DNA of 63,190 nt, filler included, from Octopus bimaculoides (lineage: Eukaryota), in assembly GCF_001194135.2 (NCBI RefSeq). It is 6 parts of 6 records of this genome, joined end to end, with 100 filler letters (N's around TTAATTAATTAA, not from the genome) between each part and the next. Parts side by side here need not be neighbours in the genome. Positions count along the whole stretch, not along the records: positions 1 to 14,201 come from NC_069000.1; positions 14,302 to 22,893 come from NC_068996.1; positions 22,994 to 42,880 come from NC_068985.1; positions 42,981 to 53,217 come from NC_068981.1; positions 53,318 to 58,927 come from NW_026296188.1; 1 more part is not named here. One strand, 5' to 3'. Below the pieces are notes generated by a model. The model saw nothing but the letters and a program-made list of their open reading frames with translations, was not told the origin of the DNA and searched no databases. Below are positions 10,422-56,240 of the stretch, one piece after another; within the stretch, counting starts at the first letter, position 1, and each line of letters opens with the position of its first letter. The position numbers and the translations under genes are program-made.

Positions 10422-10664
10422 ATTTGCATTGAGAAGCACTTCCCATCGCCAACCGGTGGTTGTCACACGCTGATGATGGGTCAATGTCCAGAAACTCGGG
10501 TCCGTGTGTATCACGTCAGGCTGGTGATGGGAAAGATGACTTCCCTTTGCAAATCCTGATAGGGCACAGAAAATGTGTCAATAGCCAGCTGGGGGAGATG
10601 TCTTCATGGGGCTACAAGCTACAGTAGCAACAACCCTTAAGGGTTAGCCACATTTAGGTGGCAA
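10422..10664 (+). mobile_element. Fold-back element with a hammerhead at its apex; diverged relative of the element at 24231-24875
   Basis: Imperfect inverted arms flank the ribozyme (atttgca...ttcccatcgccaacc versus ggctggtgatgggaa...tgcaaat). The 3' part (gggcacagaa..tagcc..ggggcta..ccacatttaggtggcaa) resembles the right arm of the element at 24745-24875. Confidence 0.6.
10464..10508 (+). ncRNA. Type I hammerhead ribozyme motif, intact core
   Basis: CACACG / CTGATGA / TGGG-tcaatg-TCCA / GAAAC-tcgg-GTC / CGTGTG. Perfect 6-bp stem I, both core boxes present, 4-bp stem II, GUC triplet with predicted cleavage after 10502. Confidence 0.85.
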
Positions 10665-11128
10665 ATATACTTCACGATATATGTATGTGTGTGTGTACAT
10701 ATATATATACAATGTTTGGGGGTTTAGTTCACAGGTGATCTAAATGATTAGGTACGCTAAGTAAGTGGTGTAACGGACTACTGGGGCTCCAAGGTCATTG
10801 TCGAAACGGTAGTTATGGAGCCATTGCAGATTTCCGATGCAGCGGATATATAATTGTTAAACAGTACGTCAAACGTTAAGGCAAGGTAAACATCTCAAGT
10901 CATATATAATATTATTACAAGAAGAAATTCAAAATCTCACAGGTCATGGATCTACGCAGGATTGAACCTAAGGACTCCTGCTCTTGTCTCTATAACTTCG
11001 GAAAGTTCAACTATGAACTTTTATGCTTCTTTTTTCTTCTCTCTTTCCATCTCCTTATTCTTCTACTCCCTTCCTCTATGTTGTCATCTTATTAATTTAT
11101 ACCATTTTCCATATTTTTCCCCCAATTT

Positions 11129-11184
11129 GTCTCTGATGACGGAATATCCCATACTCGCGGATATCCCAGAAACAGCTGTAAGAC
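11129..11184 (+). ncRNA. Minimal type I hammerhead ribozyme motif in a Penelope pLTR-like context
   Basis: GTCT / CTGATGA / CGGAATATCC-catactcgc-GGATATCCCA / GAAAC-agct-GTA / AGAC. Stem I is 4 bp. Stem II is 10 bp with two mismatches, one at its base. Stem III lies in the palindrome ACAGCTGT. GUA triplet. Confidence 0.75.
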
Positions 11185-11616
11185 TTTGAATTTCTTCCTA
11201 GTTTCCATTTGCCTGGCAGACGATCAGACCGCCATTTAATTATGTTTTTTTTTTCTAAATATTATTATTGTTTTTGTTGAAAAAAATTTGTTGGAAAAAA
11301 GCCGTGATAATTATGCACCAACCCAATATAACACAATTGGCACATTTTGCACTTATTCTGAAGTTAACACCCAATGTTGTAAAAGTGCCTCATATGACCC
11401 ACATGATACATAGAAAGAAACAAAAGAAACACTAAAATAACAGCAACAACGAGAAGAAAAGGCCAAACCCACGATGAAGTAAATTAGGTGTGACACATGA
11501 ACACCAGCCGACATCTGTAGCAGACGGCTGCGCAAATCTCAATAAGAAGGAGACGCAACGGGTGGTGCAGCTGAAACCTGCGTGAGTCTGTTGAAAACAT
11601 GATGATGATAGAAAGG

Positions 11617-11717
11617 AGGAGGAGGAAAACAAGAAGACGACGACGTAGAAGAAGAAGCAGAAGAAGAAGAAGAAGAAGAAGAAGAAGAAGAATAAGAAGA
11701 AGAAGAAGAAGAAGAAG

Positions 11718-11750
<33 letters not shown>
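11617..11750. repeat. Compound (GAA)n-(CAA)n microsatellite
   Basis: Directly visible. Confidence 0.97.
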
Positions 11751-11751
<1 letters not shown>

Positions 11752-11854: not shown

Positions 11855-11958
11855 ACAAACCACAACACTTACCCGTGGTACGCAGAGCTGCGCTCGGTAG
11901 TGCAGTGAAAGCACGCGATAAAAATAAAACTATTGACAAAAAACAACGATAACAACAG

Positions 11959-12018
<60 letters not shown>
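11855..12018 (+). mobile_element. R4/Dong-clade LINE 3' UTR with (AAT)n tail
   Basis: cagagctgcgctcggtagtgcagtgaaagcac..ataaaaataaaacta matches the 3' UTR that follows the ORF stop at 21880-22180. Confidence 0.75.
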
Positions 12019-12019
<1 letters not shown>

Positions 12020-12748
12020 GAATATGTGGAGATGGACAAGAAACAATAAATCATATTATCTCTGGCTGCCCAGTCCTGGCTAAGAAGGAATATATTCGCA
12101 GACACGACAGAGCTGTGACCTATATACACTGGAAGCTATGCCAACACTATGGAATAACAACAGAAAAAAGATGGTATAAACCCACGCCAGAAAAGGTCAC
12201 AGAAAACGAGAAAGCAACCATACTCTGGGATATGCCAATACACANNNNNNNNNNNNNNNNNNNNNNNNNNNNNNNNNNNNNNNNNNNNNNNNNNNNNNNN
12301 NNNNNNNNNNNNNNNNNNNNNNNNNNNNNNNNNNNNNNNNNNNNNNNNNNNNNNNNNNNNNNNNNNNNNNNNNNNNNNNNNNNNNNNNNNNNNNNNNNNN
12401 NNNNNNNNNNNNNNNNNNNNNNNNNNNNNNNNNNNNNNNNNNNNNNNNNNNNNNNNNNNNNNNNNNNNNNNNNNNNNNNNNNNNNNNNNNNNNNNNNNNN
12501 NNNNNNNNNNNNNNNNNNNNNNNNNNNNNNNNNNNNNNNNNNNNNNNNNNNNNNNNNNNNNNNNNNNNNNNNNNNNNNNNNNNNNNNNNNNNNNNNNNNN
12601 NNNNNNNNNNNNNNNNNNNNNNNNNNNNNNNNNNNNNNNNNNNNNNNNNNNNNNNNNNNNNNNNNNNNNNNNNNNNNNNNNNNNNNNNNNNNNNNNNNNN
12701 NNNNNNNNNNNNNNNTGAAAGCACGTTATAAAAATAAAACTACTGAAC

Positions 12749-12813
<65 letters not shown>

Positions 12814-12843
12814 TAATAATGATAATAATGATGATAATAATAA
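12019..12843 (+). mobile_element. 5'-truncated R4/Dong-clade LINE spanning a gap, between (AAT)n arrays
   Basis: Translation RICGDGQETINHIISGCPVLAKKEYIRRHDRAVTYIHWKLCQHYG..WYKPTPEKVTENEKATILWDMPIH, which contains the end of the CCHC knuckle plus the RHD motif. The family 3' end aaagcacgttataaaaataaaactactgaac plus (AAT)n lies after the gap. Confidence 0.88.
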
Positions 12844-12859
12844 CTGGTGGGAACACAAA

Positions 12860-13190
12860 CTACCGCCAGTGCTCGAAAATGGTCCCATTTCACTCATCTG
12901 GAACTTCACCATTCAAACTGACAGGAAGACAGATGCAAATAGGTCAGACATGATATCGAAAGACTGTCTCAATCGACATAGAGGTATCTGTCAAGACTTA
13001 CCAAACAAACTGAGCAAGTATAAAGATCTTGAAATAGAAATTAGTAAAATGTGGAACTTGAAGACTAAAACAATACCTGTTGTCATAGATGCCCTAGGAA
13101 TGATAGCAAAGGGGGCTGATTGCTACCTAGCTCAGATTCCAGGAAACCCCAAAATGGCAGAAATTCAAAAGATAGTGCTTATATGAACTG
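12860..13190 (+). mobile_element. R4/Dong-clade LINE restriction-like endonuclease fragment, second subfamily
   Basis: ENGPISLIWNFTIQTDRKTDANRSD...KLSKYKDLEIEISKMWNLKTKTIPVVIDALGMI...IQKIVL. NRSD is a degenerate NRPD motif. Confidence 0.88.
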
Positions 13191-13430
13191 GGGACAGTAT
13201 CAGAAGTTATCAAGAGGCATATAAAGGAAATCGGAATAGAGTGCCCAGTTGAACTGTAACAAAACGTTTGCCTCCTTGGCACGGCCAGAATAATCAGGGA
13301 AATATTAGATAATTGAAAAGAACAGATAGCATGGCACCGTAGACTGCAGGCAGCAACCCCGCTACGCATGCAAGACTCCAGGAGTCCCAACAAAACCTCA
13401 GTTAATAATAATAGTAATAATAACTCCACA
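13190..13430 (+). mobile_element. R4/Dong-clade LINE C-terminus, 3' UTR and AAT tail, third subfamily
   Basis: Translation GTVSEVIKRHIKEIGIECPVEL*QNVCLLGTARIIREILDN*, then a UTR ending in taataat repeats. Confidence 0.7.
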
Positions 13431-13730: not shown

Positions 13731-14301
13731 AATAGTAACGACGGGTGTCGCATTGTATTATTCTTCAGCAACTCAGAATCTATTTCAGGCCTATAAATAT
13801 GTTGCCGATATTAAATATTCTTTTACATACCTCAGCTGTTAAGACGACGAACTAACGTCCTACGTGACGTTCTGCTTGCTTTATATTGTTGAAATTCAGT
13901 CTATCCGCTTTTTGATTTTTGTACTAATTTTAGTCTGTTTAATAATAACTCCACACTTCACTTTCGCAATCAAAAATGGTAGTTTTGCTTTCATCTGACG
14001 AGCGTGCTAATTACGCCATGAAACACTGAAATAATTATCTCGCAATAGATCTAAATATGTTTTAAACATTCAAATATAATTCTTGGATATAGTTTCACGT
14101 ACTTAACTATTTGCTAATTTATCTGCGTGATGTCTCATATAGTTTGACTGTATCTTCTTTTATTACTATTTACTAGATTAACTGTCACTCGTAAACGAAT
14201 ANNNNNNNNNNNNNNNNNNNNNNNNNNNNNNNNNNNNNNNNNNNNTTAATTAATTAANNNNNNNNNNNNNNNNNNNNNNNNNNNNNNNNNNNNNNNNNNN
14301 N

Positions 14302-14495
14302 AAAAACACCAGGACTTACAAATATATATAACATACAGAAAATTGCGCTACTGGGTACTGCACACATTCTACGCAAAACACTTTCAATACAGTAAACATA
14401 AGAGCACCACAGCAAACCACAGCACATACCCAAGGCGCACAGAGCTGCGCTCGGTAGTGAAGTGAAAGCACGTTATAAAAATAAAACTACTGAAC

Positions 14496-14551
<56 letters not shown>

Positions 14552-14567
14552 TAATAATAATAATAAT

Positions 14568-14605
<38 letters not shown>
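14302..14605 (+). mobile_element. R4/Dong-clade LINE 3' end with (AAT)n tail
   Basis: KTPGLTNIYNIQKIALLGTAHILRKTLSIQ* plus 3' UTR; near-identical to 21985-22180. Confidence 0.88.
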
Positions 14606-14608
<3 letters not shown>

Positions 14609-14799
14609 TCGACCTACCACTCTATACATTGATCTTCTTTGCTCTACACGTCGGGAAGACACACGGTAAGAAAAAAAAACTGAGAGAAGAAAATCTCATA
14701 ACAATAATAGTAATAACCACAAGATAAAATACCAGCTAAATTAGCATGCACTAGCGTATTGCTGTTGTTGTTGTTGTTATTATTATCATCATCATTATT

Positions 14800-15000
14800 A
14801 TTCGGTAGTCGTATTTTGATAAAGTGCCTTCACTGCACTACCGAGCGCAGCTCTGTGTGTCTTGGATTTGTGCTGTGGTTTGCTGTGATGCTCTTATTTT
14901 TATTGTATTGAAAGTGTTTTACGTAGGATGTGTGCGGAGCCTAGTAGTGCTATTTTCTGTATGATATATATACTTGTAAGTCTTGGTGTATTTGTCTGAA
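14800..15000 (-). mobile_element. R4/Dong-clade LINE 3' end, inverted and diverged
   Basis: Reverse complement of the same ORF end and 3' UTR, abutting (ATT)n/(GTT)n. Confidence 0.82.
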
Positions 15001-18318: not shown

Positions 18319-19044
18319 TATTTATATGCAGTTAAGTAAGTATATGTCCGGTCATAGAGTAACCAATGGTTTCGCACCCATAAATGGTTTAGGCCCATGG
18401 ATGACTCGTCAAACTCTACAGTCAAATGCCATACAGTTCTTCAAACCTAGGGGGTAGAAATCCGTTAAGGTCAGTTAGTGACTAAACAAGGAATAAACGA
18501 TTAACAAGCCATGTGTGGCACCTCAAAGATGAAGGGTTCCCATATCATATCAAGTGGAAGATCACAGAGCAGTCGGTATCATATATTAACAGGAGCGGAC
18601 GCTGCTAGCTTTGCATAGTTGAGTGAGCAAGGATCCACAAAGACTCCCTGGAACAAGGATTATTGAATTCCCGGCAAGAAATTTACATTTTCTGTATCCC
18701 ACTCAAACGCTACCTGTTACAAGCATGATATTTCCCATTCAACGATTAGATCCGAAGTGCCCTTAGAGCTAGAAGCTAATTTAAGGGCGGATTTCTCCGG
18801 TCCCCTTTTTTTTACGCATGTGGACTGGCGTAAGGGTGATAACCCGTCCTCGCCGACCTGGATTGTTTATTCTTTGTTTACTCACTAACTAACTGACCGT
18901 AACGGATTTCTACCTCTGCAGTTTGAAGAACTATATGGCCTTCGGCTGTAGAGGCTGACGGTTCGTCCATGGGGCTAAGCGCTTTATGGATGCAAAACCA
19001 TTAGTCATTCTATGACCGGACATAGACTTAACTGCATATAAATA
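18319..19044. mobile_element. Non-autonomous fold-back element with diverged TIRs of about 180 bp
   Basis: 18319-18500 is an imperfect reverse complement of 18861-19044. Shared blocks include tatgtccggtcataga, cccatgga, gttcttcaaac and ggtagaaatccgtta. Confidence 0.85.
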
Positions 19045-20859: not shown

Positions 20860-21065
20860 ATATAGCCTGAACAGGATAAACTATCCCTATTTTGCAGAGA
20901 AAAGTGTAGGTGGCTAGCTGTGAACTCGAACTCACATCCCCGTCATTACATGTGACGATGCTTTGACCGATTAAGCTAAACTACCCAATACAAATTCCTC
21001 TGCAAATTAAGATATATAAATCTCGTTTTATGAGACGCTCTCATATGTTAAATTCAAATTATGCT
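20860..21065 (-). mobile_element. Second, diverged copy of the tRNA-containing repeat
   Basis: caggataaa..ttgcaga..tcgaactcacat..taaact.ccca..aattc.tctgcaa..tta.gagacgct..gttaaattcaa, collinear with 2520-2715. Confidence 0.65.
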
Positions 21066-21149
21066 AAATTCGAATTTTCGTTGACAGAGTGTATTGTAAG
21101 CTTATTATACACTCTGTCTTCCCTATCAATCATTTAAATTATACTAAAT

Positions 21150-21275
21150 GTGCAACCTGGTGTTTTTGTTATGTATTTGTCTGAATATTTTTTATTATAC
21201 CTAATGCGCCTACTATGATAGGAATTGTTTCTGCTTTTAGATTCCACATTTGAGTTACCTCTATTTCCAAGTATG
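21150..21275 (-). mobile_element. R4/Dong-clade LINE fragment joined to the inverted hammerhead-SINE body
   Basis: LEIEVTQMWNLKAETIPIIVGALGII..DKYITKTPG. Confidence 0.85.
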
Positions 21276-21289
21276 AGCAGAATTTAGGC

Positions 21290-21441
21290 TAGTTGAAATA
21301 TACAGTTCTATATTTAAGAGATGAGGAATTGTGTACATTATTTACATTCAACGGATATTTGTCCTCATCTTGTTTGTTGTTAACACAACGTTCCGGCTGA
21401 TATACCCTCCAGCCTCCATCAGGTGTCTTGGGGAAATTTCC
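21290..21441 (-). mobile_element. Hammerhead-SINE body, inverted copy with a mutated core
   Basis: Reverse complement of 21382-21427 reads gacac-ctgatgg-a-ggctg..cagcc-ggaac-gtt-gtgtt, which has two core substitutions. Confidence 0.8.
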
Positions 21442-21453
21442 ATAATTGCCCAT

Positions 21454-21524
21454 GGTTATATGGCGTAGTGGTTAAGAGCTCGGGCTAGTAACCCCAAGAA
21501 TCCGAATTCGATTCCAGGCAGTGA

Positions 21525-21594
<70 letters not shown>

Positions 21595-21852
21595 GACAAC
21601 AACAACAACAACAACAGCAACAACAAAATAATAATAATAATAATAATAATAACAACAACAACAACAACAACAATAACATCGAAAGATACCTTAGGAATGA
21701 GAACCCAGGTTCAAAATTTCCCCAAGACACCTGATGAAGGTTGGAGGGTATATCAGCCGGAACGTTGTGTTAACAACAAACAAGATGAGGGCAAATATCC
21801 GTTGAATGTAAATAATGTAAATAGTTCCTCATCTCTTAAATATAGAACTGTA
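21454..21852 (+). mobile_element. tRNA-headed SINE-like element: tRNA-like head, (AAT)n/(AAC)n tract, body carrying a hammerhead motif
   Basis: Head has A box TGGCGTAGTGG (21461-21471) and a B-box-like AATTCGATTCC. A microsatellite follows at about 21529-21676. The body contains GACAC-CTGATGA-A-GGTTG..CAGCC-GGAAC-GTT-GTGTT (21726-21771); this copy has GGAA in place of GAAA. Confidence 0.75.
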
Positions 21853-21879
21853 TATTTCAACTAGCCTAAATTCTGCTCA

Positions 21880-22180
21880 TACCTGGAAATAGAGGTAACT
21901 CGAATGTGGAATCTAAAGACAGAAATAATTCCTATTATAGTAGGTGCATTAGGTATAATAAAAAAATATTCAAACAAATACATAACAAAAACACCAGGAC
22001 TTACAAATATATATAACATACAGAAAATTGCACTACTGGGTACTGCACACATCCTACGCAAAACACTTTCAATACAGTAAACATAAGAGCACCACAGCAA
22101 ACCACATCACATACCCAAGGCGCACAGAGCTGCGCTCGGTAGTGAAGTGAAAGCACGTTATAAAAATAAAACTACTGAAC

Positions 22181-22258
<78 letters not shown>
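21880..22258 (+). mobile_element. R4/Dong-clade LINE 3' end: ORF C-terminus, 3' UTR and (AAT)n tail
   Basis: LEIEVTRMWNLKTEIIPIIVGALGIIKKYSNKYITKTPGLTNIYNIQKIALLGTAHILRKTLSIQ*, then UTR and tail. Confidence 0.9.
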
Positions 22259-22259
<1 letters not shown>

Positions 22260-22405
22260 GCATTGAAAAATACTTTAGGAATGAGAACCCAGGTCCGAAA
22301 TTTCCCCAAGACACCTGATGAAGGCTGGAGGGTATATCAGCTGAAACGTTGTGTTAACAACAAAGATGAGGACAAATATCCGTTGAATGTAAATAATGTA
22401 AATAG
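22259..22405 (+). mobile_element. Hammerhead-SINE body without head, following an (AAT)n tract
   Basis: Near-identical to 21677-21825. Confidence 0.8.
22310..22355 (+). ncRNA. Minimal type I hammerhead motif, intact core, GUU triplet
   Basis: GACAC / CTGATGA-A / GGCTG-gagggtatat-CAGCT / GAAAC-GTT / GTGTT. Stem I is 5 bp, stem II is 5 bp, stem III is the palindrome ACGT with no loop. Confidence 0.7.
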
Positions 22406-22792
22406 TTGAAATATGCTTGTGATATATTTCAACTGCTAAAAAGCATTGCATTGCAGTTATCTCTCTTATGGTAAAAAGCTGTGAAAAATCGTTTTTATGT
22501 TCAGTATTAGGAATCTCAAAATAGACGTTGCGAGCTATTTCCGCTCTCATCAATGAGATGTACCTAAGAGAGGTAACTTTGAACTAATTTAGAGACCTAT
22601 AGCTTTATGTATAATCCAGTCAATACATTGACTGATTTGTGCTAGTAGATCGCCCGACATAAATAACGAAGCGTTAGCGCGAAGCAGCGTTTATTTATTA
22701 TAAGAGATTTATTCTCCACGGTAACTGAGTGTATTTGCTTTTAGCAGTTGAAATATGTCTGTGACGTATTTCAACTAGCCTAAATTCTGCTC
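22404..22792. mobile_element. Unclassified element with a palindromic hairpin at each end
   Basis: AGTTGAAATAT-gcttgtgat-ATATTTCAACT (22404-22434) and AGTTGAAATA-tgtctgtgacg-TATTTCAACT (22746-22776). The inner flanks gctaaaaagc and gcttttagc are inverted. Confidence 0.55.
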
Positions 22793-22829
22793 TTATGTAC
22801 ATAAATACATACATACATGCATACATACA

Positions 22830-22893
<64 letters not shown>

Positions 22894-23192
22894 NNNNNNN
22901 NNNNNNNNNNNNNNNNNNNNNNNNNNNNNNNNNNNNNTTAATTAATTAANNNNNNNNNNNNNNNNNNNNNNNNNNNNNNNNNNNNNNNNNNNNCAGGTAA
23001 GTCTTTTTCTGTAATGCTGTATTTGTACAGTATTTTTGTTTTCTTCTTGTTACTTAGTAGTGTTGATTGTTTACTAATTTCGTTGAGAATCGATAAATCT
23101 TTTCTCTTTTTTTAAATTTTGTTCTGGATGTTATTTATCCACAAGGTCTGTTTGGGTGGTAGAACTCCTGTTCGGATGGGTTTGAGTGAGTA

Positions 23193-23262
<70 letters not shown>

Positions 23263-24230
23263 GCTTGTGTTAGTATGTGTGTGTGTGTATGAGTGTGTCT
23301 GTTTAACTATCTGATGACGTCTGTTTCAACTTCTCGGCCTATAGAGTGCACCTAATAATTATAGTGTAATGTCATGTGCTACAGATTGCGAAATATATCT
23401 ATGTATCTATCAATACAGGTATATGTAGACACGTATATACACATGTAGATATATACATATATATGCATACATGTGTGTGTGTGTTTGTGTGTATGTGTAC
23501 ATCAAAATAAGTAGCCGGATGTCAACTAGTAATGCAATACGACCATTTCAGGCGGCTTCATTTAATTGAACAATGCAATCATTTCATCAATTTAAATACA
23601 GCACTATCTTCAGCTGCACAAAATACGGATTTTCAATAGACAAGCCATATTAATATAATCTTTAAAAAAATATTTTAACAGAGCAAGAGGATAATACCGG
23701 ACTGACTTGGTCCTTCAATTTAAGTACCTAATTCAACTGAATAGTAATTACGCTATATATATAAATTTCAAATGTCAGTGTTCATATTCACTCAACATAT
23801 TTCAAAGCATCGGAATACTTCACAGCATACATAGGTGCATTCATATACATAAGATATAATATAAAAATTTATAGATATATAAATATATGAAAATACATAA
23901 ATGTACTTGCGAGGTTGTATGTTCGTATTAAAATCAATGGGGATATTAAAGTATGCGGATGGTGAATGTATGGCGGTAATCCAAATAGATAAAAAAGTTG
24001 GTATAAAATGATCTTAAAGGAATCTTGAGCAGGTGCAAAGTCTGACGGCCGTTTCGAGAAGAGATCGGTTGATATGGGCAAGTTAATTCCAAGCGTAACA
24101 ATCATCTATGTTTCTCTCATCAGAATTAATATAAGGAGCAGCATGAGAAATTTAAGAATTTTTAATATATAAATATATACATAAATATAAATATCACATT
24201 TATAAATCTCCCAGAGAGATTTATGCACGA

Positions 24231-24875
24231 TAAAGTGTTGGATTGTTGCCACTTAATGTGGCAGTCCCAGGAAAGGGAAGAATGTTACTGTTATTTAGCC
24301 CCAGGAAACAATTTCTAGTTGGCTACGCGACACAAGCGTTCTGTGCCCTTAAGTTTTCAAGAAGGGCAATTATCCTGAAATTAGTCTCTGGATGCTGGCT
24401 TTGTTGGGAGGTGGTGCTTTCTAGCCAACCAGAAACGGTGTTTCTTGGGGCTAAATAACATTAACATTCTTCCCTTTCCTGGGACTGCCACATTAAATAG
24501 GCAACAAGACATCACTTTATCGTGCTGTTACTGCATAACTCTCTCTGAGAGATTTAGAAATGTGATATCTCTAATTTTGAAGATCAGTGAATGTATTTCT
24601 CTTGAAATTCTTTTTTTTTTCAACAGCGGTTTAGCAGCGACATCTACCAGAGCCAAGATACTCCAGACTGATGAAGGGCAATTACCTTGAAACTAGTCTC
24701 TCGGTGCTGGCTTTGTTGGGTGGAGGTGCTTATCTCCCCTGTTTGAAAACTTAAGGACACAGAACGCTTGTTTCGCGTAGCCGACTAGAAACAGTGTTTC
24801 TTGGAGCTAAATAACAGCAACATTTTTCCCTTTCCTGGGACTGCCACATTAAGTTGGCAACAAGCCATCACTTTA
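24231..24875 (+). mobile_element. Two partial tandem copies of a long-TIR fold-back element with a central hammerhead
   Basis: Copy A (24231-24519) has inverted arms of about 85 bp. Copy B (about 24640-24875) has a right arm of about 130 bp that is the reverse complement of the left arm at 24231-24360. Both share the core segment gaagggcaatta..gaaa.tagtctct. Confidence 0.85.
24663..24704 (+). ncRNA. Minimal type I hammerhead ribozyme motif, intact core
   Basis: CCAGA / CTGATGA / AGGG-caatta-CCTT / GAAAC-ta-GTC / TCTcGG. Stem III is the palindrome ACTAGT, GUC triplet, predicted cleavage after 24698. Copy A has TCCT and TCTGG at the same positions, which completes the pairing. Confidence 0.8.
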
Positions 24876-25685
24876 TGTATATATATTGTATAGATGCAAA
24901 TTTTATACAGCTATAAGCGTATCCATGTTAACATTTGTACATACAGTAATACACACACACACACACACACATATATATACATATATATATATATATGTGT
25001 GTGTGTGTATAGATAGATACATGCATATATATGTANNNNNNNNNNNNNNNNNNNNNNNNNNNNNNNNNNNNNNNNNNNNNNNNNNNNNNNNNNNNNNNNN
25101 NNNNNNNNNNNNNNNNNNNNNNNNNNNNNNNNNNNNNNNNNNNNNNNNNNNNNNNNNNNNNNNNNNNNNNNNNNNNNNNNNNNNNNNNNNNNNNNNNTAT
25201 ATATATATATATATATATAGATAGATAGATAGATAGATACGTGTACGTGCGTATGTGTGTATACATGTGAGAGAGAGAGAAAGATGGGAAGAGAGAAATA
25301 GAGGGGGAGAGAGGAAGAGGGATTCTTATGCTTCGATGTGTAATATGTTGTCTGGTGTCACTGAACTTTTTCTGTCTTTTTGTCCTGAATTAAAATGGAG
25401 TAAATAGGGTGACAAATGTTAAGGCTGTCTCACCAACAACTGGTAAATACACTCACAAGCAAATATGCATACAGTACATATATGCATCCGGACACGTATC
25501 CAATCCGTGCACAGATATATCTGCTAAACAAACGTATATATGCACAAACATGTTCCAGCGTGTCTGCATGTATATAGGTTGATCTTTGCGTTTGTATGTA
25601 TAGACTCACTATGTATATATATATATAGACGCACATACAGAGCCATATACACTACACATACATGCATGCATACACACACGCACGC

Positions 25686-25767
<82 letters not shown>

Positions 25768-26014: not shown

Positions 26015-26056
<42 letters not shown>

Positions 26057-27078: not shown

Positions 27079-27079
27079 G

Positions 27080-27175: not shown

Positions 27176-29269
27176 TTAGTAATGACTATGAGTGTGTTCG
27201 CCCTCAAAATTTATTTGCTATTATTTTACAATTTCATACAGCATACACGTGTCGGTCATTATACTATACTGTATAAAATTGTAAATTAAAAGAAAATCGA
27301 ATTTGATGGTGAACACGTCTCCTTACTCCTAATAATTATTACTAATATATACTCCAGACAATATTGCCGTCCAGCGAAGCGAAACAGGAATTAACCATCG
27401 GAGGAATTCACAGAGTGACTGGTAACTAATAGCAGTTACGGACGTTAAATATTGATCAATATGGTTAGTCGCAAACTGGAGAGAGCGAGAGAATGAGAGA
27501 GAAACATGGTTAAATTTGGAAACGGATAGAAAGAGATGTTTTCGGTGTTGGTAGCAATAGAAATGACACTTGTGATATTAGTGGCTGGAGTGCTGGCATT
27601 GATAGTAATGGTAAATGTCTGGTTCTGGCGATAGTAGTGTTCGTGGTGACGGTGGTAAGGATCTTGTGAGTAGAAGTGGCGGGTGGCTCTGATGCTAATA
27701 GTGGCAGTGGTGATAACGGTAGTGATCCAGAGGTTGATGGCTGTAGCGATGGTGTTGGTGGCGGTGGTGGTTGTCATCGTTTTAATGGAAGTGATGGTAT
27801 TAGTAGTAGTGACAGTTGTAACAGTGGTGGTGGCGACGGTAGTGGTGGAAGTGATAAAACTATTTGAAATATCTGCTGATTCAGAAGGGGTTGTGTGTTT
27901 TTAATCTAAAGGTGTTCACTATCTGATCAATGGCGGAGATATGGAAATGACGAAATGCAAAAACGAGAGTTCGGAATCTCAGTGGGAAATGCTGTTTCAA
28001 CAGCACATCGAGCAAGTGACAAAGATAAGAATGATATTGTTCAGCTTGTTTGGAATCTTGTTTGACATTTAGTTTTATAACGGTTACTAATTTGTTTGGA
28101 GGGAAATGGTGTGGCGTATTTTGGAAGCAACGGAAAAACCTAGTCAGACATGTTTTCTGTCACAAGTCAATCATTTCTTTCTTTTTTTGCCCTTCCGTCT
28201 GACATCTCATGTTCTTCCTTTTCGTCTTATCAACCATTCTTTCTTCTTTCTCTTATTTGTCAGTTGTTCTTTTTGGCTTATTTTTCTTTTACACTTCGAC
28301 TTACATTTCACTCTTTCTCTGTTTATTTTCCGTTCTTCCTCATTCCTCGACATATCCTTCACTCTTTCTATTGTTTCTATATTTATCTTCTGCTTCTAAT
28401 TTTACTTTCACTATCAAATATCCCCCCTCCCTTTTCTCTCGCTGACAGCTTTTCATTTTCCTTACATCCCCATTTTCAATATTGCTCTCCTTCTTACTCT
28501 TCATACTACTATTCCGATATACATAAAAGCGCATACGTCTATACAGCGCAAATAACGCTTTCTTTCTTTCTTTCNNNNNNNNNNNNNNNNNNNNNNNNNN
28601 NNNNNNNNNNNNNNNNNNNNNNNNNNNNNNNNNNNNNNNNNNNNNNNNNNNNNNNNNNNNNNNNNNNNNNNNNNNNNNNNNNNNNNNNNNNNNNNNNNNN
28701 NNNNNNNNNNNNNNNNNNNNNNNNNNNNNNNNNNNNNNNNNNNNNNNNNNNNNNNNNNNNNNNNNNNNNNNNNNNNNNNNNNNNNNNNNNNNNNNNNNNN
28801 NNNNNNNNNNNNNNNNNNNNNNNNNNNNNNNNNNNNNNNNNNNNNNNNNNNNNNNNNNNNNNNNNNNNNNNNNNNNNNNNNNNNNNNNNNNNNNNNNNNN
28901 NNNNNNNNNCAAACAAACAAACAAACAGAGAATCGAGACATGCTACATAAAGAGTCTATCCCTTCGTCAGTTGTCCCTGTCCATCTACTCCGCGTTTCGA
29001 AGGCAAGGAAAATACGCGACTTCGTTGGAACAGTCCTTCCCGTAAAGCAAAGTAAATAAAATTTGGAATTTTTTTTTGCGGACGGTGAAAGTGCTAACAA
29101 GAACAGGACAGTGAGAACAAGACAGTAAAAACAATACTGTAAAAACAATAAAAACAGTTTAAAAAAAGTAAAAACAAGACAGAAAAACAAACGGTGTGGG
29201 CTGTTGGACCAAGACGATCGAAAATTATGAACGCTAAGTAGGAGAGACAGAAAAATCACGTCTGTTCTT

Positions 29270-29452
29270 TAGGAAGACCAGGTTCGAAATTTCCCCAAGA
29301 CACCTGATGAAGGCTTGAGGGTATATCAGCCGAAACGTTGTGCTAACAACAAACAAGATGTGGACAAATATCCGTCAAATGTAAATAATGTAAATAATGT
29401 ACATAATTCCCCATCTCTTAAATATAGAAAGATATTGTTATATTTCGGGATA
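29270..29452 (+). mobile_element. Hammerhead-SINE body, dispersed copy
   Basis: Homologous to 21690-21850 (ccaggttcgaaatttccccaagacacctgatg...ctcttaaatatagaa). Confidence 0.8.
29299..29344 (+). ncRNA. Minimal type I hammerhead motif, intact core, weakened stems
   Basis: GACAC / CTGATGA-A / GGCTT..CAGCC / GAAAC-GTT / GTGCT. One mismatch each in stems I and II. Confidence 0.6.
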
Positions 29453-50098: not shown

Positions 50099-50397
50099 CG
50101 TGTGCAATGCGTTTCCAAAAAGGAAAACTATAATTGTTACTAAATATAACTAGGGTGTTAGAACACCTACATTGCTAGAAATAAGAGCTAAAAAGCTCTA
50201 ATGTGGTAGTTAAAGCACATATTTGTATACATTAATATTGACAGGGACTGTAATCGCCGCAAACATATGTCAAGTACATATGTATATAATTAATGCTACA
50301 GCGTTAGAGCTTTTTAGCTCTTATTTCTAGCAATATAGGTGTTCTAACAACCTAGTCACATTTATAGTTTTTCCATTTTGGTAACACATTGCACACG
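50099..50397. repeat. Fold-back element with arms of about 140 bp; partial extra arm at about 49790-49910
   Basis: gttagaacacctacattgctagaaataagagctaaaaagctctaa (50158-50202) recurs inverted at about 50304-50348 and in direct orientation at about 49807. Confidence 0.85.
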
Positions 50398-50440
50398 CTT
50401 GTATATATTAAATTTATGTATGTGTGTATGTATGTATGTA

Positions 50441-50508
<68 letters not shown>

Positions 50509-50536
50509 TGTGTCTGTGTGTGTGTGTATATATGTA

Positions 50537-50965
50537 TAAGGTCGTCAAGTATGAAATTTGTGGAGAAGAAAAAAAGTTTGCTAATGTTTTATTTATACAA
50601 GAAATTGTTTTATTCATCAAAGTATGCGCCCATATTGTCAATACGCTTTTGCCATATCAGCTTTTCCAGTCCGGAATTGTAAAAGCCTGGCAATCTAAAG
50701 TCAATAAAGTCTTGGAAAGCCTGTTTTACAGCATCGTCGGATTTGAACTTTTTTCTTGTCAAAACGTTATCCAAATTCTGGAAGAAGTTGTAGTCAGTGG
50801 GGGTAAGATCAGGTGAGTATGGTGGATGATGGAGAACTTCCAACTTCAACCCCTATAGTTTCGCCAATGTCATTTTTGCGATGTGTGGTCTGGCGTTGTC
50901 TTGCAATAAAATAGGAGTGGATCTGTTGACTAATCTAGGTTGTTTTTTGTAAGTTTCTACTAATA
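50537..50965 (-). mobile_element. mariner transposon 3' remnant
   Basis: ILLQDNARPHIAK..LEVLHHPPYSPDLTPTDYNFFQNLDN..WQKRIDNMGAYFDE*, containing the YSPDL motif. A probable TIR abuts TA at about 50537. Confidence 0.9.
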
Positions 50966-50989
50966 TTTTCAAAATTTACAAAAAATACA

Positions 50990-52021
50990 CTGTTCCTTCG
51001 TGGATGACTTAAAACTTTATGCAAAGAGTATGCATGAGATGAAAAAGAGCCTTGACCTAATTACAACATTCTCAAAGGATGTAAGGTTGGAGTTTGGTCA
51101 GGATAAATGTTGCTATATGATTGTGAAAAGGGGGAAGACTACAAACCAGACTAGTAACATCTTCATCAATGACTTGACTGTTTCCCCTGTATCTGATGAG
51201 GAATGTTACAGGTACCTAGGGGTGGATGAAAATATATCTTACAATGGCACCTGTAACAAAACATGTATCATAAAGAAAGTTTAAATCTAAGATCTCTCTT
51301 CATTCAATAAAACAGTGGCCCACAATGTGTTTGCAGTGCCAATAATCATACCAGCATTTGGGCTGCTTGATTGGACGCTTGATGAGATCCGAGCCATTGA
51401 TGTAAAAACCCGAAAAACACTAACAAGCGCACATAATTTCCACATAAACAGTGACCTTTGAATGTTGCATCATATCCCTTCGGCAACATCTTTTAACCAC
51501 CAAGCGTCGAAGTGCATCCCTTGACCAAGTTTGCATACATGAGGCTGATAACATCATAAGACTTTGAAGCTATCTCCTTGAGCAACACTCTGTGTCTGAT
51601 AACCTGGAATACATGTCCAAAGAAGTCGCACGACTCTACCGTAACGTATCATCAGATGAAAGAATGAGTTTATATGAGCAGAAGACTATGCATGGATATA
51701 TTAGTAGAAAGCGCCGAGATGATAGTAACATTGACCATCACAGCAGTTTATCATGGGCCAATAAACGGATTACTACCTCCCACACTGAAGGGTATGAGCT
51801 TGCAATTCAGGAACAGGAAATATCAAACAAGTAACTGATGCACAAAAGGGATAGAGATGCAGAAAAAGAAGTAAAATGTTACAACCGATGCAGACTTTGC
51901 GGAGTTCACACTGAAGATGTCACCCACATCATAAGCAGTTGTCCGAAAATATCATCGTGGTAATATCTACCGATGAGACATGACGTTGTAGCAAGGACAC
52001 TCTATAATGAAATCCTATACG
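50990..52021 (+). mobile_element. Decayed R4/Dong-clade LINE: RT domain end to CCHC knuckle
   Basis: VDDLKLYAKS..FSKDVRLEFGQDKC..YRYLGVDE; NVFAVPIIIPAFGLLDWTLDEIRAIDVKTRK; AIQEQEISNK; CRLCGVHTEDVTHIISSCPK..RHDVVA. In-frame stops are present. Confidence 0.88.
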
Positions 52022-52230
52022 AGCGTGCGCTTTCGCGCAGCTCGCTTAAGTTCTTCACGCTGGATACGTGCTCTCTCAAAAGTGTCGATCCCCTCCTTAA
52101 CCTGCTTCCTCCATTTGTGGTGATGACAGGCATTGTTCTCTCAATCAGTGTTCTGAATATAACAGGCCTTTAATGAAGACTTGACACAGTCCTTAAATCG
52201 TAGCCTTGGTTTCTGTCGGAGTCTCCTTCC
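52022..52230 (-). mobile_element. RTE-clade LINE C-terminal fragment
   Basis: Minus-strand RQKPRLRFKDCVKSSLKACYIQNTD*ENNACHHHKWRKQVKEGIDTFERARIQREELKRAARK. Confidence 0.8.
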
Positions 52231-53055
52231 ATTCACAATACATACATACATACATACAAAAATATCCTGTTGTTGATGTTGAAATTCCAGTGAAGGGGCC
52301 TTGGATCTAGGTTAGCAACCGGTTCTTTCTCTATTGGCAAGAAATTTTGTAATAAACTGAATAATGACATACGTGAATACATACATACATGCATGCAAGG
52401 ACAACAATCACTAAATCAACAAAGAACGCAATACGTGAATTACAGAAATATTTTATTTTAAAAAGTTGGTAATGACTTCGAAGCTTTGCCCATGTCAGCT
52501 CGTCAAACTGATGCAGAAGAACTAAGAATAACGGTATAGATAGCAGTATAAATATATTCAGCAAAATACAAAGATAAGCGAATTATAAATAATACGTGAG
52601 AAAAATGGTTCCAGAAAGAAAACAAGCAAATAGAAATTACTGGTGAATGAACGACATCTGTATATGCTTAAAGAGCGCTCAAGGGGAAAATCCATGAAGG
52701 AATCACATTCAAATCAATAATATTGCGTTAATGTATGTAGGTGGATGTAGGTATAATGATTGGGTTACCTTGCGAGTTGAGGAAATACATAAAGTTAAGC
52801 CTCAAGAATTTGAAATGTTAAAGTGTATGATAATGTGATGTAAAACTGAGTAGGTACGTAGTTGATGCTAACTAGAATAAGCTCGAAGTCAATGGCAAAA
52901 ATTGTGTTAACTCTACTATGAAAAAATGCAAGTATATATATCTATGTATTCATATCTATTTATCTATCTACCTATCTAGCTAGCTAGCTATTATCTATCT
53001 ATCTGTCTATTTATCTATCTATTTATTTGTCTATCTATCTATTTGTCTGTCTGTC

Positions 53056-53188
53056 TATTCCCCGACAACTACGTTAAGGGTACACGTGTCTGTGGAGTGC
53101 TCAGCCAGTTGCACGCTAATTTCACGAGCAGGATGTTCCCGTTGATCGGATCAACTGGAACCCTCCATGTCGTAAGCGACGGAGTGCC
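53056..53188 (+). mobile_element. SINE family C, 5'-truncated
   Basis: Aligns to about 48685-48816. Confidence 0.88.
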
Positions 53189-53458
53189 ACACAATATACA
53201 TACATATATATATATATNNNNNNNNNNNNNNNNNNNNNNNNNNNNNNNNNNNNNNNNNNNNTTAATTAATTAANNNNNNNNNNNNNNNNNNNNNNNNNNN
53301 NNNNNNNNNNNNNNNNNTGGCTGAAACACATAAATAAATAAATAAATAAATAAATATATAATATATACATGTATATATACATATAATATATACATGTATA
53401 TATATATAATATATACATAATATATACATGTACATATATAATATATACATATACATAC

Positions 53459-53524
<66 letters not shown>

Positions 53525-55814
53525 GATATAAATATATATATCAGAGAAAAAATGTTGGGGGAAGAGAAAGAAAATGAAATTGGTGACTGAGAAGAAGAGA
53601 AAAAGAGGGGAGTGAGGGGGAGAAAGGGAGAAACATTTGAATATAGCAAAGAACCATTACTACTACTATTACTGCAGCATGTTGATAGATAGTGGTTCAC
53701 ACATGATCATTTCAAATATCACTTGTGACTGGTTCAGGCTAATTTGTAGGCAACATTACATTTCCACAAAGCATTTGTTATTGTAATTGTTGTTGTTGTT
53801 GTTGTTGTTGTCATGGTTGCCTACTTTACTTTAGAAATTTTTTATGGTGTAGTCGTTTGTTATTAAAGCTTGTTTTAACTATTACTATCATTGTTTCTTG
53901 TAGCAGTTGATGGTCTCTCTATAGAATAACGTCTGAAATTATGTAATACACCCAAAACTGAAATTCCTTCAAATGTGTATGATTTTTGGCATCATAGGTT
54001 AGGGTTCTAATAAATAAATGGTGCAAAATAAAGAAAGAAAGAATAAGAAAAGTTGTGGAAGTACCTCTCTCTTTTTTATAATTTTTCAGTTTTGACTTTA
54101 CAAAATTGTTTTTTTTCCCTAGTCTGTTTTTAAAAGCAACGCATATTTTTTAAGACCCACAATTTCAGACATCTAAGATGATTTTCCAAAGAAAGTCAAA
54201 TCTGAAAAACTACTGAAAGTTTACCATTTATTTATCCAACAAAAAGATTACTATTTATTTATTTATTTTGTGAAATCTTTTTACCTTTTATCTTTTACAT
54301 TTTTCAGTCATTGGTCAGCAAACATGTTGGGACACCATCTTGCAGGGTTTAGTAAAAAAAAAATCGATTCCTGTACTTGCTTTTTTTCTTTTTTTTTAAG
54401 TAAGGTACATACTTATTCTATCACTATTCTATGTGATTAAGAAGCAAACTTCTTACCATACAGCCAATTCACGATTATCTTATATAACAACGCTAAATAA
54501 TTAGATCCATTGTGGTGAATCCTGCCAAAAAATAACCTAGACACCATATTCATGGAAAAGCAATGCTTTCCAGTTGTTCTTTTAAACTAAATGTGGCTCT
54601 GCTGATTATGTTATAGTCTTAGTCCATACTTACCCTCTGACTCACCAACTACAACAGAATTGATATCCTATAACCAAGGTGCCACATAAAAAGTATTTGT
54701 GTTAGTGTTGATGCCACTTAAAAAAGCACTGGGCTACATAAAGAGCACCAAATACACTCCGTAAGGTGGTTGGCTTTAGGAAGGGCATGCAACTGTAGAA
54801 ATCATGCCAAAACAGATTATGGAATCACACACACATATATATACAAGAGTTACAAAATGAAGTATGGAAAATCCAGGCTACATATGTTTCACAGTGAATG
54901 GAACCTCAGAAGTGGTAAAATCCAAGCGAGGTGTATAACACTGGCTATTCTTCAGGCCAAGGATATCTTGATAAGATAAAAGGCTACATTGTCACAAGGA
55001 GGTACATGTTGACACAAAGAAGATTTGATCAAAATGTGTGGGGGGGTGCAGAATGTGAGGGGTATATAAATGTGGGGAGAAATAAGTAATAGAAGACGGG
55101 AAGAAAGAGAAAGAAAAATAAATAAATAAATAAAGTAGAATAAAATATAATATAGGGGAGTGAGAGAAAGGAGGAATTGGACAGCATGGAATTTTGTCAG
55201 TGAACAGGTCGCAGTCTCAAAGCGACGAAAATATTTTGGCAAATTAAATTTAAATGTTGAAGTGAATCTAACGGTTTTTGTGTGTTATTAAATGGCTTAT
55301 AAACACCTTCCACGCTGCAATTGTTTTTGTTCCAGCACACGATCTCAGATCAGGTCACTTGCTATGCAAGTACATCTCTGTAATATATATATATATATAT
55401 TTATTTATTTCACTTTTGGATTTGGTGTGCAAGATTCTTTATGTGAAGCATATGGTCATGTGTTTCAGTCTTCATGTGTGTATGTGTGCTTGTCTGTTCA
55501 TATTACCTATGTACCTACCCATCTCTATGTGTATTTGTTTACATTCATATCCATTTGCCTACATACATGTACATATACATATACCTATATACATATATAA
55601 ACACACACAAGCATACATGTGTTCTTGTGTGAAGTGAAGTGTGGGTATATATGGTCATGTTTTAGTCTTCATTTATGTATGTGTGTATGTGTGCTTGTCT
55701 GTGCATATTACCAATGCACCTATCCGTTTGTATGTCAATCTGTTTACATTGATATTCATTTGCCTACATACATGTGCATACATGTGTATTTAGAGAAGGT
55801 GTGTTTAGCCTTGT

Positions 55815-56240
55815 GAAGGCAAGAAACATTTCTCTCCTTAAGAGAATTAACAAGCATGCATTTCCTATTCTTAGCATTATACACGGGTGCTGTGGTTAGA
55901 ATCTTCCAATATAGGTTGTAGCTAACTCCCCTATCATTGAGTTCCCATATATAGTTGCTTAATCCCGTTGAATTCCTCCTATTTCTGTTTCTAAAAGTAT
56001 ACCTATGGTGATTAAGCTTATTTTTCATATTATTCTGGGTGGCTCCTACATATACCTTATTACCTGATTGGGTACTCACTACACATTGGTATACCACTTC
56101 CTTTCAAATACAATTACTATTAAATACAAAATTACGGCTAATTCTACAATCACAGGTCCTATACTGCTGTGTGGGGGTAACATTGGGGATAAAATTTGGT
56201 ATTGCATTATTAATGCTATGGCTGTTGCTAATATTAATAA
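55815..56240 (-). mobile_element. Penelope-like element remnant: Cys-rich linker and GIY-YIG endonuclease
   Basis: RTCDCRISRNFVFNSNCI*KEVVYQCVVSTQSGNKVYVGATQNNMKNKLNHHRYTFRNRNRRNSTGLSNYIWELNDRGVSYNLYWKILTTAPVYNAKNRKCML. This matches the CxCR..C..VVY..YVG.T..H..ST.LS.YIW.L pattern. Confidence 0.88.

Follow-up and report, generated by a model that had tools for sequence, protein, structure and literature searches.

Hammerhead motifs in the window

The analysed window (63,190 nt of Octopus bimaculoides DNA, of which 53,870 are called bases) contains sequences matching the core of type I hammerhead ribozymes (CUGANGA ... GAAA ... UH), several repeats with direct and inverted copies, and a remnant of a Penelope-like element (PLE) endonuclease. 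A relaxed descriptor, which tolerated one mismatch in each helix and an additional base after A9, recovered all five intact-core motifs proposed in a sequence-only reading of the window, all on the plus strand (cores 10470, 11133, 22315, 29304 and 24668); its first version recovered only two of the five. As that reading had claimed, each has a self-complementary helix III: ACUCGGGU in 10470, ACAGCUGU in 11133, ACGU in 22315 and 29304, and ACUAGU in 24668. The same relaxed descriptor was used for the shuffle controls, which yielded means of 0.028 and 0.013 and a maximum of one match (400 + 400 dinucleotide shuffles), against five matches in the window.

A descriptor for long helices II added +5322, -24123 and -54955 as intact cores (7 matches versus a mean of 0.022 in 500 shuffles), and the widest one returned seven C3-G8 motifs plus a G3-C8 motif at +55200, with a C3-G8 expectation of 0.0075 per shuffle. 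No match was obtained with the widest descriptor in the reversed and complemented window. Counting -24123, an intact core with a weak helix I, as the ninth motif, there are eight C3-G8 motifs and one (55200) with a compensated G3-C8 pair; the five motifs proposed earlier are real, and their number was an undercount by three long-helix-II cores and one G3-C8 core. The motifs far exceed the shuffles with all three descriptors, which were tuned on the window under study. The Rfam hammerhead models gave no match at E≤10 in four targeted scans (29304, 5322, 24123 and 54955 lay outside those scans), and no hammerhead was present among the 150 of 280 Rfam matches listed for the whole window.

Helix I is open-ended and, in eight of the nine motifs, consists of 3-7 contiguous bp. 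Clean helices I and II appeared in the minimum-energy fold of the monomer only in 55200, and the fold z-scores of the five originally noted motifs ranged from +0.19 to -1.42. BLAST comparison of 12 motif neighbourhoods linked only the pairs 22315-29304 and 41590-54955, and the intact motifs therefore come from 7-8 unrelated contexts, where at least three had been claimed. Judged by their sequences, these are genuine type I hammerhead motifs drawn from at least seven unrelated repeat families.

The intact canonical-type hammerhead at 10424..10552 (+; core 10470, H17 10502) caps a long interrupted helix I (fold z -3.72), and the intact-core hammerhead at 11129..11184 (+; core 11133, H17 11180) has an 8-bp helix II behind a C-A mismatch and an 8-nt palindrome. 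Three intact cores carry long helix II regions: (i) 5318..5400 (+; core 5322), with a helix II region of 54 nt and ambiguous pairing, a helix I of 4 bp, and a (TA)n run approximately 95 nt past the cut site, outside the range given earlier, (ii) 24042..24125 (-; core -24123), with a helix II of 61 nt, an 8-nt palindrome and a helix I of only 2 bp, and (iii) 54845..54966 (-; core -54955), with a branched helix II and a TA run approximately 35 nt past the cut site. The last has a decayed sibling at 41576..41690 (+; 72.8% over 103 bp) with an A9G change, a shortened helix III and a (TA)n end. A further relic (13989..14023, +) retains the first half of the core with helices I and II, GAAA and helix III being gone according to sequence and fold.

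The relics described earlier were found at 24361, 13995, 41590 and 58625/58662, in addition to a hammerhead-less tail at 4839-4927. Three core-damaged copies had also been reported and are present, at +21731, -21422 and -49973; the first two are not independent, since one lesion is common to both.

Family A and its composite locus

The family comprising 22315 and 29304 (family A) is the only one fitting the definition of a minimal hammerhead, and the description of all motifs as minimal was not upheld: 10470 and 24668 are of canonical type (helix II of 4-5 bp, without the extra base), unlike the minimal PLE form. Family A agrees with the published minimal consensus in the extra base after A9, the 7-bp helix II and ACGU. 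The minimal PLE form, with its extra base between 9 and 10.1, long helix II, short helix I and palindromic 15.2-16.2, is found in 22315 and 29304 and is absent from 10470 and 24668; the extra base also occurs in 55200. A G10.1-C11.1 pair is present in two of the three plus-strand copies, 22315 having G-U. The family also forms an opposite-strand pair 100-700 bp apart, as do published minimal hammerheads.

Two direct copies lie in one locus (C). Copy 1 (21677..21852, +; core 21731) has a minimal hammerhead with an A13G lesion, and copy 2 (22260..22407, +; core 22315, H17 22350) an intact one with an extra A after A9 and the ACGU helix III. Between them lies a LINE 3' end with an (AAT)26 tract (21886..22258, +; 98% to 14302-14495), which we take to be Dong/R4-like. 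An inverted arm (21139..21440, -) contains the family A hammerhead, its tail, a 30-bp flank and a piece of the LINE; it is identical to 21714-22016 at 283 of 300 positions, and its hammerhead (-21422) bears the core lesions A9G and A13G. The host flank within this arm is unexplained by a simple tail model. Between arm and copy 1 are a tRNA-like head recognised by eye (21454..21528, +; A-box-like sequence at 21461-21471 and a B-box-like sequence with one mismatch) and an (AAT)n(AAC)n tract (21529..21676, +) that joins it to the family A body. The unit of the locus measures 584 nt, outside the approximately 170-400 nt range of retrozymes. Elsewhere, family A is represented by a 5'-truncated copy 3 with an intact minimal hammerhead (29267..29429, +; core 29304) and by a 3' tail without hammerhead (4839..4927, -), a relic truncated at its 5' end that has a short inverted piece behind it in self-BLAST.

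Loci with direct and inverted copies

Locus D consists of an inverted arm (24180..24366, -), which shares 6 nt with the first direct copy and extends about 40 nt beyond the final 3' end in a tail-like manner, a first direct copy truncated at its 5' end within the hammerhead core (24361..24579, +), and a second direct copy (24640..24876, +; core 24668, H17 24698) with an intact canonical-type hammerhead, ending at a TA-rich run. Locus F (49787..50415, -) has a damaged core (-49973; a short deletion across the cut site) with its 3' segment; a direct copy lies upstream, and 50268-50415 forms an inverted arm. The unit size is 312 nt in D (cut-to-cut spacing) and 352 nt in F (offset of direct copies). 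At locus G (58377..58886) two hammerhead half-relics on opposite strands (-58625, +58662) lie between paired inverted arms, a reading that is uncertain.

Loci C, D and F each contain two direct copies and one inverted copy, equal to the arrangement published for PLEs, and their first units are damaged or truncated. The 'fold-back carriers' proposed earlier as a class of their own match this ordinary PLE layout. A partial tandem with an inverted 5' copy and an optional tail of 30-40 bp describes D and F; C differs by the host flank in its arm, and G conforms in part. A search for target-site duplications found only simple-sequence repeats of 7-8 nt. TATATA occurs ≤200 nt downstream of the cut site in 8 of 12 scorable sites versus a 33% background (p 0.019, post hoc), two of 14 sites having been dropped where a gap was reached first.

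The PLE endonuclease remnant and the swapped-core motif

The GIY-YIG remnant of a PLE noted earlier was confirmed at 55792..56250 on the minus strand. It is broken by one in-frame stop and a C-terminal deletion. Of its CxCX5C linker the CxC is retained and the third C, present in the relatives of 64-75% identity, is replaced; at the C-terminus CxH is retained and CxxC is lost to the deletion. The remnant has 2384 relatives at E≤0.001, the best named being an O. bimaculoides GIY-YIG protein (75% identity), and matches Pfam GIY-YIG with an E of only 0.04. Its sequence, having a CxC linker and no CCHH, assigns it to the Hydra-type PLEs. No reverse transcriptase for it was found in the window, a LINE fragment occupying the upstream position; one relative (P0110) has a reverse-transcriptase motif upstream.

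No motif in the window could be tied to a PLE reading frame; for the five originally noted motifs no link to the remnant was found. The sole candidate is -54955, which lies on the remnant's strand, 837 bp downstream, with other insertions between. The swapped-core motif, on the opposite strand, faces the remnant. It belongs to a unit of approximately 226 bp between two TAATATA words (55155..55380, +), present in one copy in the window; the G3-C8 motif (55192-55244; core 55200, H17 55236) has a helix I of 7-8 bp and a helix II of 5 bp. Swapped-core matches arise at 0.09 per shuffled window, which makes 55200 alone less secure; one as strong as 55200, with any swapped core, occurred in 2 of 400 shuffles.

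Origin of the motifs

It is likely that the motifs mark the 3' terminal repeats of PLEs and short non-coding derivatives copied independently by PLE enzymes. A PLE origin in general, as suggested earlier, is supported by the anatomy, the endonuclease remnant, the direct-plus-inverted layouts and a published Octopus PLE hammerhead. The motifs are not one system; they are several unrelated families of a type already published, PLE terminal-repeat hammerheads along with short non-coding derivatives, behaving like independent insertions, and the 'window-level system' of the sequence-only reading found no support.

Published PLE biology suggests how such copies could arise. A PLE protein would nick AT-rich DNA and reverse-transcribe from the 3' region of the element; most copies would stop early, leaving just the hammerhead-bearing 3' end at the new site, frequently together with a second, inverted copy. 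A single RNA is predicted to close helix III poorly, and cutting would therefore need two palindrome-paired copies or the help of a PLE protein. Most single genomic copies, diverged by 4-10%, are probably inert.

There is nearly an even chance that the family A copies belong to a polymerase III SINE that has a tRNA-like head, contains the hammerhead internally and is mobilised by PLE enzymes; the alternative is a bare PLE end behind an unrelated SINE. Both copies whose 5' body is complete begin directly behind an (AAT)n tract, the inverted arm stops 13 nt short of the predicted start of the tRNA, where it should stop if the inserted RNA began with the head, and none of the three copies has a TTTT terminator, a lack shared by 41% of random windows of 170 nt. 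Schistosomes are known to possess hammerhead SINEs. Against this, the head was not called by ARAGORN or Rfam, a strict box pattern gave no match, and it occurs once in the window, in front of one of the two complete bodies, a LINE 3' end taking its place in the other. The LINE ends here likewise finish in CTGAA and (AAT)n, so the head may represent a distinct SINE that depends on LINEs. The SINE-like carrier proposed earlier, with its single head, was not substantiated.

A more tentative proposal, rather unlikely on our assessment, is that loci D and F, possibly together with 10470, represent active non-LTR retrozymes, i.e. units of approximately 350 nt that undergo double self-cleavage, circularise and are re-inserted. 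It partly shares its origin with the preferred explanation and differs by claiming present activity via RNA circles. The unit spacing, the canonical-type hammerheads with a long helix I, and the folds of the D and F monomers, somewhat better than shuffles (z -2.34 and -1.89), point in this direction, and mussel retrozymes of 350-390 bp form circles; however, neither D nor F has two complete hammerheads, the criterion of Li et al. (10.64898/2026.07.22.740005), copies within each locus are just ~85-91% identical, and only one of nine tested Xenopus dimers cleaved.

That the inverted arms arose as local DNA fold-back duplications, due to repair or replication errors or assembly artefacts and unrelated to PLE insertion, is improbable. 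The arm of locus C does copy an already damaged hammerhead, host flank and a LINE piece, three of seven long inverted spans contain no detected hammerhead, and the association of hammerheads with inverted pairs is weak (4 of 13 loci, p 0.026; 3 of 12, p 0.09, without the locus found via its fold-back). The arms are, however, 77-94% identical and therefore not assembly duplicates, and D and F repeat a three-part layout with a tail-like extension, D having a 6-nt junction overlap as described for PLEs. A coordinated, host-used ribozyme system would suit the high local density and is very improbable given unrelated families, many decayed copies, motifs on both strands, no shared spacing and no nearby host gene in a six-frame survey of the window. 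Chance matches in simple-sequence-rich DNA, to which the absent Rfam matches, the post hoc descriptors and the swapped-core rate would lend some weight, are scarcely credible, and as an explanation of the whole motif set they were ruled out by the shuffle controls (seven C3-G8 matches, against a maximum of one in 400 local 300-nt block shuffles).

Density and comparison with known systems

The 7-9 intact motifs correspond to approximately 130-167 per Mb (Poisson range 52-317), an upper-leaning estimate, since the window was picked for its motifs and the descriptors differ from those of the axolotl count (126,247 motifs, 4.5 per Mb). The very large ribozyme repertoire suggested earlier for this genome is supported as a possibility, and would matter more if the density held genome-wide. 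We consider it unlikely that the octopus combines the densest animal hammerhead repertoire counted so far (~10^5 intact motifs, many PLE families), a multi-copy natural G3-C8 family missed by CUGA searches and a tRNA-headed SINE with a PLE, not a LINE, as partner. If the second were true, CUGA-only descriptors would under-count PLE ribozymes; the third would be a SINE-partner pairing not found in our literature search.

Minimal hammerheads sit in the pseudo-LTRs of metazoan PLEs, at 2,000-9,000 per genome, with U3-A8 variants reported (Cervera and de la Pena 2014, PMC4209133). Family A shares with them the extra base after A9, the long helix II, the 5-bp helix I and the ACGU palindrome; further likenesses are the opposite-strand pairs, the presence of many families in one genome and the prevalence of single copies truncated at the 5' end. 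The canonical-type 10470 and 24668, the three motifs with a 54-61 nt helix II region and the G3-C8 core of 55200 are unlike them.

As to the prior cataloguing asked about earlier, one Octopus bimaculoides PLE family with a hammerhead, Hydra-1_Obim of the Hydra clade, is already catalogued (Craig et al. 2021, PMC8557442), other than the families described here; four short window motifs were sought in the supplement of that paper and none was found. The clade and the window have in common the C-terminal GIY-YIG with a CxC linker and no CCHH and a near-palindromic helix III of 8-10 nt; the clade's hammerhead close to the 3' end and its (TA)n targets may also have counterparts in the window. By eye, the longer palindromes of the window resemble the Hydra-clade hammerheads of that study. 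The window's endonuclease and hammerheads, again by eye, differ from those of Hydra-1_Obim, and a reverse transcriptase is absent from the window.

Non-LTR retrozymes have been proposed to derive from PLEs (Cervera and de la Pena 2020, PMC7229834; Li et al. 2026, 10.64898/2026.07.22.740005). D and F resemble them as non-coding, partly tandem units with type I hammerheads, of a size within the retrozyme range and matching mussel retrozymes; the differences are that no window locus has two complete hammerheads and that inverted 5' arms are present. The schistosome Sm-alpha and Sj-alpha elements are hammerhead SINEs (reviewed in PMC6765202) in which, as at locus C, a polymerase III-type head precedes the hammerhead; locus C differs in its minimal PLE-type hammerhead, microsatellite spacer, PLE-type inverted arm and head found once.

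In a PLE hammerhead, cleavage was recovered in part by an engineered C3G/G8C double change (Frangieh et al. 2024, PMC11167929; PMC3884650), and U3-A8 variants occur naturally (Perreault et al. 2011, PMC3088659). Both share a compensated 3-8 pair with 55200, which, unlike the engineered form, is a natural genomic copy of a putative ribozyme, single in the window. PLE terminal hammerheads, retrozymes and one listed Octopus family are known; the window adds further Octopus families to this pattern.

Census of hammerhead motifs

Descriptor searches covered the 53,870 called bases of the window, which also holds 9,320 N and abundant microsatellites (130 rows); CTGANGA is present 36 times, where about 20 occurrences would be expected. 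The first version of a strict type I descriptor recovered two of the five intact motifs of the sequence-only reading. A relaxed descriptor, which tolerates one mismatch in each helix and an additional base following A9, returned exactly these five (10470, 11133, 22315, 24668 and 29304, all on the plus strand), compared with shuffle means of 0.028 and 0.013 and a maximum of 1 (400 + 400 runs). The five are thus real, and each has the self-complementary helix III ascribed to it. With a longer helix II, seven matches were obtained, three of them new (+5322, -24123 and -54955; mean of 0.022 in 500 shuffles). A unified descriptor yielded seven motifs with the usual C3-G8 core pair and one, +55200, with the swapped pair G3-C8; C3-G8 matches numbered 0.0075 per shuffle (maximum 1, 400 shuffles), and the reversed or complemented window gave none. 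All descriptors were tuned on the window itself, which biases them towards matches; the margin over the shuffles is nonetheless large, with the relaxed, the longer-helix II and the unified descriptor alike.

Swapped cores appeared at 0.09 per shuffled window, with a strength equal to that of 55200 in 2 of 400 shuffles; shuffle tests over six core types gave 7/500 and 7/500. Candidates at +8760, -33947, -33938, +49625, +8950 and +19220 (part of a different repeat family) were dropped as chance or undecidable, as was +51193, which lies within a LINE reading frame. Four targeted Rfam scans brought up no hammerhead (E<=10), and none stood among the matches listed for the whole window (150 of 280); the microRNA matches are simple-repeat noise.

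Motif families and their predicted folding

Only two pairs, 22315-29304 and 41590-54955, can be aligned among 12 motif neighbourhoods, so the proposed single window-level system is not borne out; the motifs represent a known kind of element. Family A, a repeat carrying the hammerheads 22315 and 29304, comprises five pieces at three loci (4839-4927, 21306-21440, 21677-21852, 22260-22407 and 29267-29429). Its four hammerhead-bearing copies are 91-96% identical, and the 3′ end is common to four of the five pieces. Its anatomy is that of the minimal hammerhead of Cervera and de la Pena 2014 (PMC4209133). The designation "minimal" suits this family, but not 10470 and 24668, which have the canonical anatomy (short helix II, no extra base, long interrupted helix I). 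Core damage in the family A copies -21422 and +21731 is real, but the two are not independent: both carry A13G, and the inverted arm at this locus duplicates, in addition, 30 bp of flanking sequence and part of a LINE (283/300 identical), which indicates a single event.

Minimum-energy folds of the five intact motifs were not better than those of shuffles (z +0.19 to -1.42) and were mostly alternative folds, while 55200 alone folded directly into helices I and II (z -1.93). For 10470, the longer hairpin that surrounds the motif is significant (z -3.72); its counterpart at 24668 is less so (z -1.91). The predicted helix III duplexes of dimers reach -8.9 (10470), -11.1 (11133) and -4.8 kcal/mol (24668), and are weak for family A (-1.7) and 55200 (-0.2 kcal/mol). 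Self-cleavage of the window copies is doubtful.

Upstream of an (AAT)n tract and the first family A copy lies a tRNA-like head that has an A-box and, one mismatch aside, a B-box, occurring once in the window and called by neither ARAGORN, Rfam nor a strict box pattern. Family A could be a tRNA-headed SINE with an internal hammerhead, the head being integral to the unit, a serious possibility that we lean slightly against. Both complete bodies begin directly behind an (AAT)n tract, and the inverted arm stops 13 nt before the predicted tRNA start, both of which favour an integral head; at the other complete body, however, the head's place is occupied by a LINE 3′ end, and these LINE ends have the same finish as the head tract. 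The head-tract-body combination and the G3-C8 unit may both be common Octopus repeats.

LINE 3′ fragments at 11953-13200, 14302-14609, 14757-14995 and 21886-22258 end in (AAT)n tracts; one such fragment also starts behind an (AAT)n tract, and two copies are 98% identical. Their match to Pfam zf-RVT reaches only E 0.02, and we take them to be of the restriction-like endonuclease type, Dong/R4-like. A tRNA-Thr-like match at 20909-20986 on the minus strand (ARAGORN; Rfam 32.3 bits) lies in a repeat with a second copy at 2477-2718 (71% identity) and is likely a tRNA-derived SINE head.

Organization of the inverted-arm loci

Four hammerhead-bearing loci contain inverted arms. Locus D (24180-24876) consists of an inverted arm, a direct copy truncated inside the core, a spacer and a direct copy with an intact hammerhead; the cut-to-cut distance is 312 nt, and the arm shares 6 nt with the first direct copy and extends about 40 nt beyond the final 3′ end. 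Locus F (49787-50415) repeats this three-part arrangement on the minus strand; its offset is 352 nt. Published insertions of Penelope-like retroelements (PLEs) comprise a partial tandem, an inverted 5′-truncated copy and an optional 30-40 bp tail, and the layout of loci D and F matches them, the "fold-backs" included. At locus C (about 21139-22407), two direct copies lie 584 nt from each other and a further copy is inverted; locus G (58377-58886) appears to be a single inverted pair, with a hammerhead half on each strand. Since the arms are 77-94% identical, they are old and not assembly duplicates. Four of 13 hammerhead loci lie inside inverted spans, which cover 9.2% of the called bases (p 0.026), or 3 of 12 without locus G (p 0.09), a weak statistical link. 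No convincing target-site duplications were found.

The inverted spans 18319-19044 and 59591-60039, in which no hammerhead relic was found, have arms of about 180-200 bp beside TA-rich runs and are possibly MITE-like DNA elements. Around locus C there are 29-bp direct and 31-39-bp inverted duplications (21853-21881, 22404-22441 and 22739-22795), which a simple PLE tail model does not explain. At 26396-26968, 35-bp terminal inverted repeats enclose about 500 bp, presumably a deleted Tc1/mariner-type element. Paired 44-base N runs with 12 called bases between them (14246-14257, 22938-22949 and similar) are a masking or scaffolding pattern, not biology.

The PLE endonuclease remnant and its neighbours

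The GIY-YIG remnant reported at about 55815-56240 proved genuine, extending over 55792-56250 on the minus strand with one stop. Its Pfam match is weak (E 0.04), and a protein search gave 2384 representatives at E<=0.001, the best named relative being an Octopus bimaculoides protein (75% identity); against longer proteins, the endonuclease had no match at E<=0.001. It has a CxC linker and a C-terminal CxH and lacks CCHH, features of the Hydra clade, to which it is assigned on their basis. Craig et al. (PMC8557442) describe Hydra-1_Obim of O. bimaculoides, which targets (TA)n and bears a hammerhead close to its 3′ end; compared by eye, the window copy belongs to a different family, and none of four window motifs was found in their supplement.

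The remnant's neighbourhood includes none of the five intact motifs of the sequence-only reading. The motif -54955, on the remnant's strand and 837 bp downstream, terminates in a TA run, a trait shared with its sibling 41590, and may be the remnant's terminal hammerhead. The motif 55200 belongs to a unit, about 226 bp long and bordered by TAATATA on either side, that is likely a separate insertion; the motif is ruled out as the remnant's own terminal repeat because it lies on the opposite strand, and as the 3′ end of Octopus Naiad elements because published Naiad ends differ.

In the PMC8557442 supplement, the Naiad_Obim and Naiad_Ovul 3′ ends, inspected by eye, have CTGATGA downstream of GAAAC, flanked by pairing segments, like a permuted hammerhead, and the authors give a "half core" for one Octopus Naiad end; these ends are absent from the window. 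Decayed LINE reading frames occur at 50700-52000, 56250-56760 and 57839-58315 (RVT_1, E 1.2e-06 at 50964-51281); near 50600-50900, the minus strand holds a fragment of a mariner-like transposase.

At least half of the sequence words in 54000-56760 are contained in each of 13 sequencing runs; no RNA run is among those listed, which has no bearing on expression. As DNA, relatives gave 0 matches in viral contigs and 0 in prokaryote genomes; the 16 metagenome matches of a 19-mer were chance occurrences that lacked the hammerhead context, and translated repeat frames provided no candidates for further copies.

Comparison with known systems

The motif density is 130-167 per Mb in this one window, selected for motifs, which scaled to 2.0-2.5 Gb would give about 2.6-4.2 x 10^5 motifs, an extrapolation from a single selected window. 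Literature on hammerheads, Penelope and octopus yielded no genome-wide count for Octopus; a search for a G3-C8 core found an engineered variant and no natural one, though such variants may already be described in Lunse 2017 and Hammann 2012, and no PLE-driven tRNA SINE was found in the literature searched. That a record density, a natural G3-C8 family and a PLE-driven SINE hold jointly is unlikely.

According to Frangieh et al. 2024 (PMC11167929), a PLE protein cleaves AT-rich DNA on both strands, reverse transcription begins at two neighbouring internal sites, which produces the tail, and the hammerhead cuts only with the protein present and is dispensable for insertion in vitro; the C3G/G8C double change partly restores cutting. 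For minimal motifs, cleavage is weak and confined to dimers (Cervera and de la Pena 2014, PMC4209133), and one of nine Xenopus dimers cut (Li et al. 2026, 10.64898/2026.07.22.740005). From the motifs, layouts and remnant we infer a probable PLE origin of the motif families: each would represent a PLE 3′ end, or that of a short derivative which was copied in trans. Most copies would be truncated and in decay, and their cleavage would be weak and depend on a partner.

For PLE hammerheads, PMC4209133 records many families within one genome, pairs on opposite strands and a variant with U3-A8, and Cervera 2020 (PMC7229834) and Li 2026 (10.64898/2026.07.22.740005) treat retrozymes as PLE derivatives; 235 Rfam hammerheads are given for the giant squid genome. 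Further comparison was made with Arkhipova 2013, Weinberg 2019, Perreault 2011 (PMC3088659), PMC3884650, PMC6155905 and PMC10085705. It is well supported that the window motifs are further PLE terminal hammerheads and retrozyme-like derivatives, of a kind already known, and not a new system.
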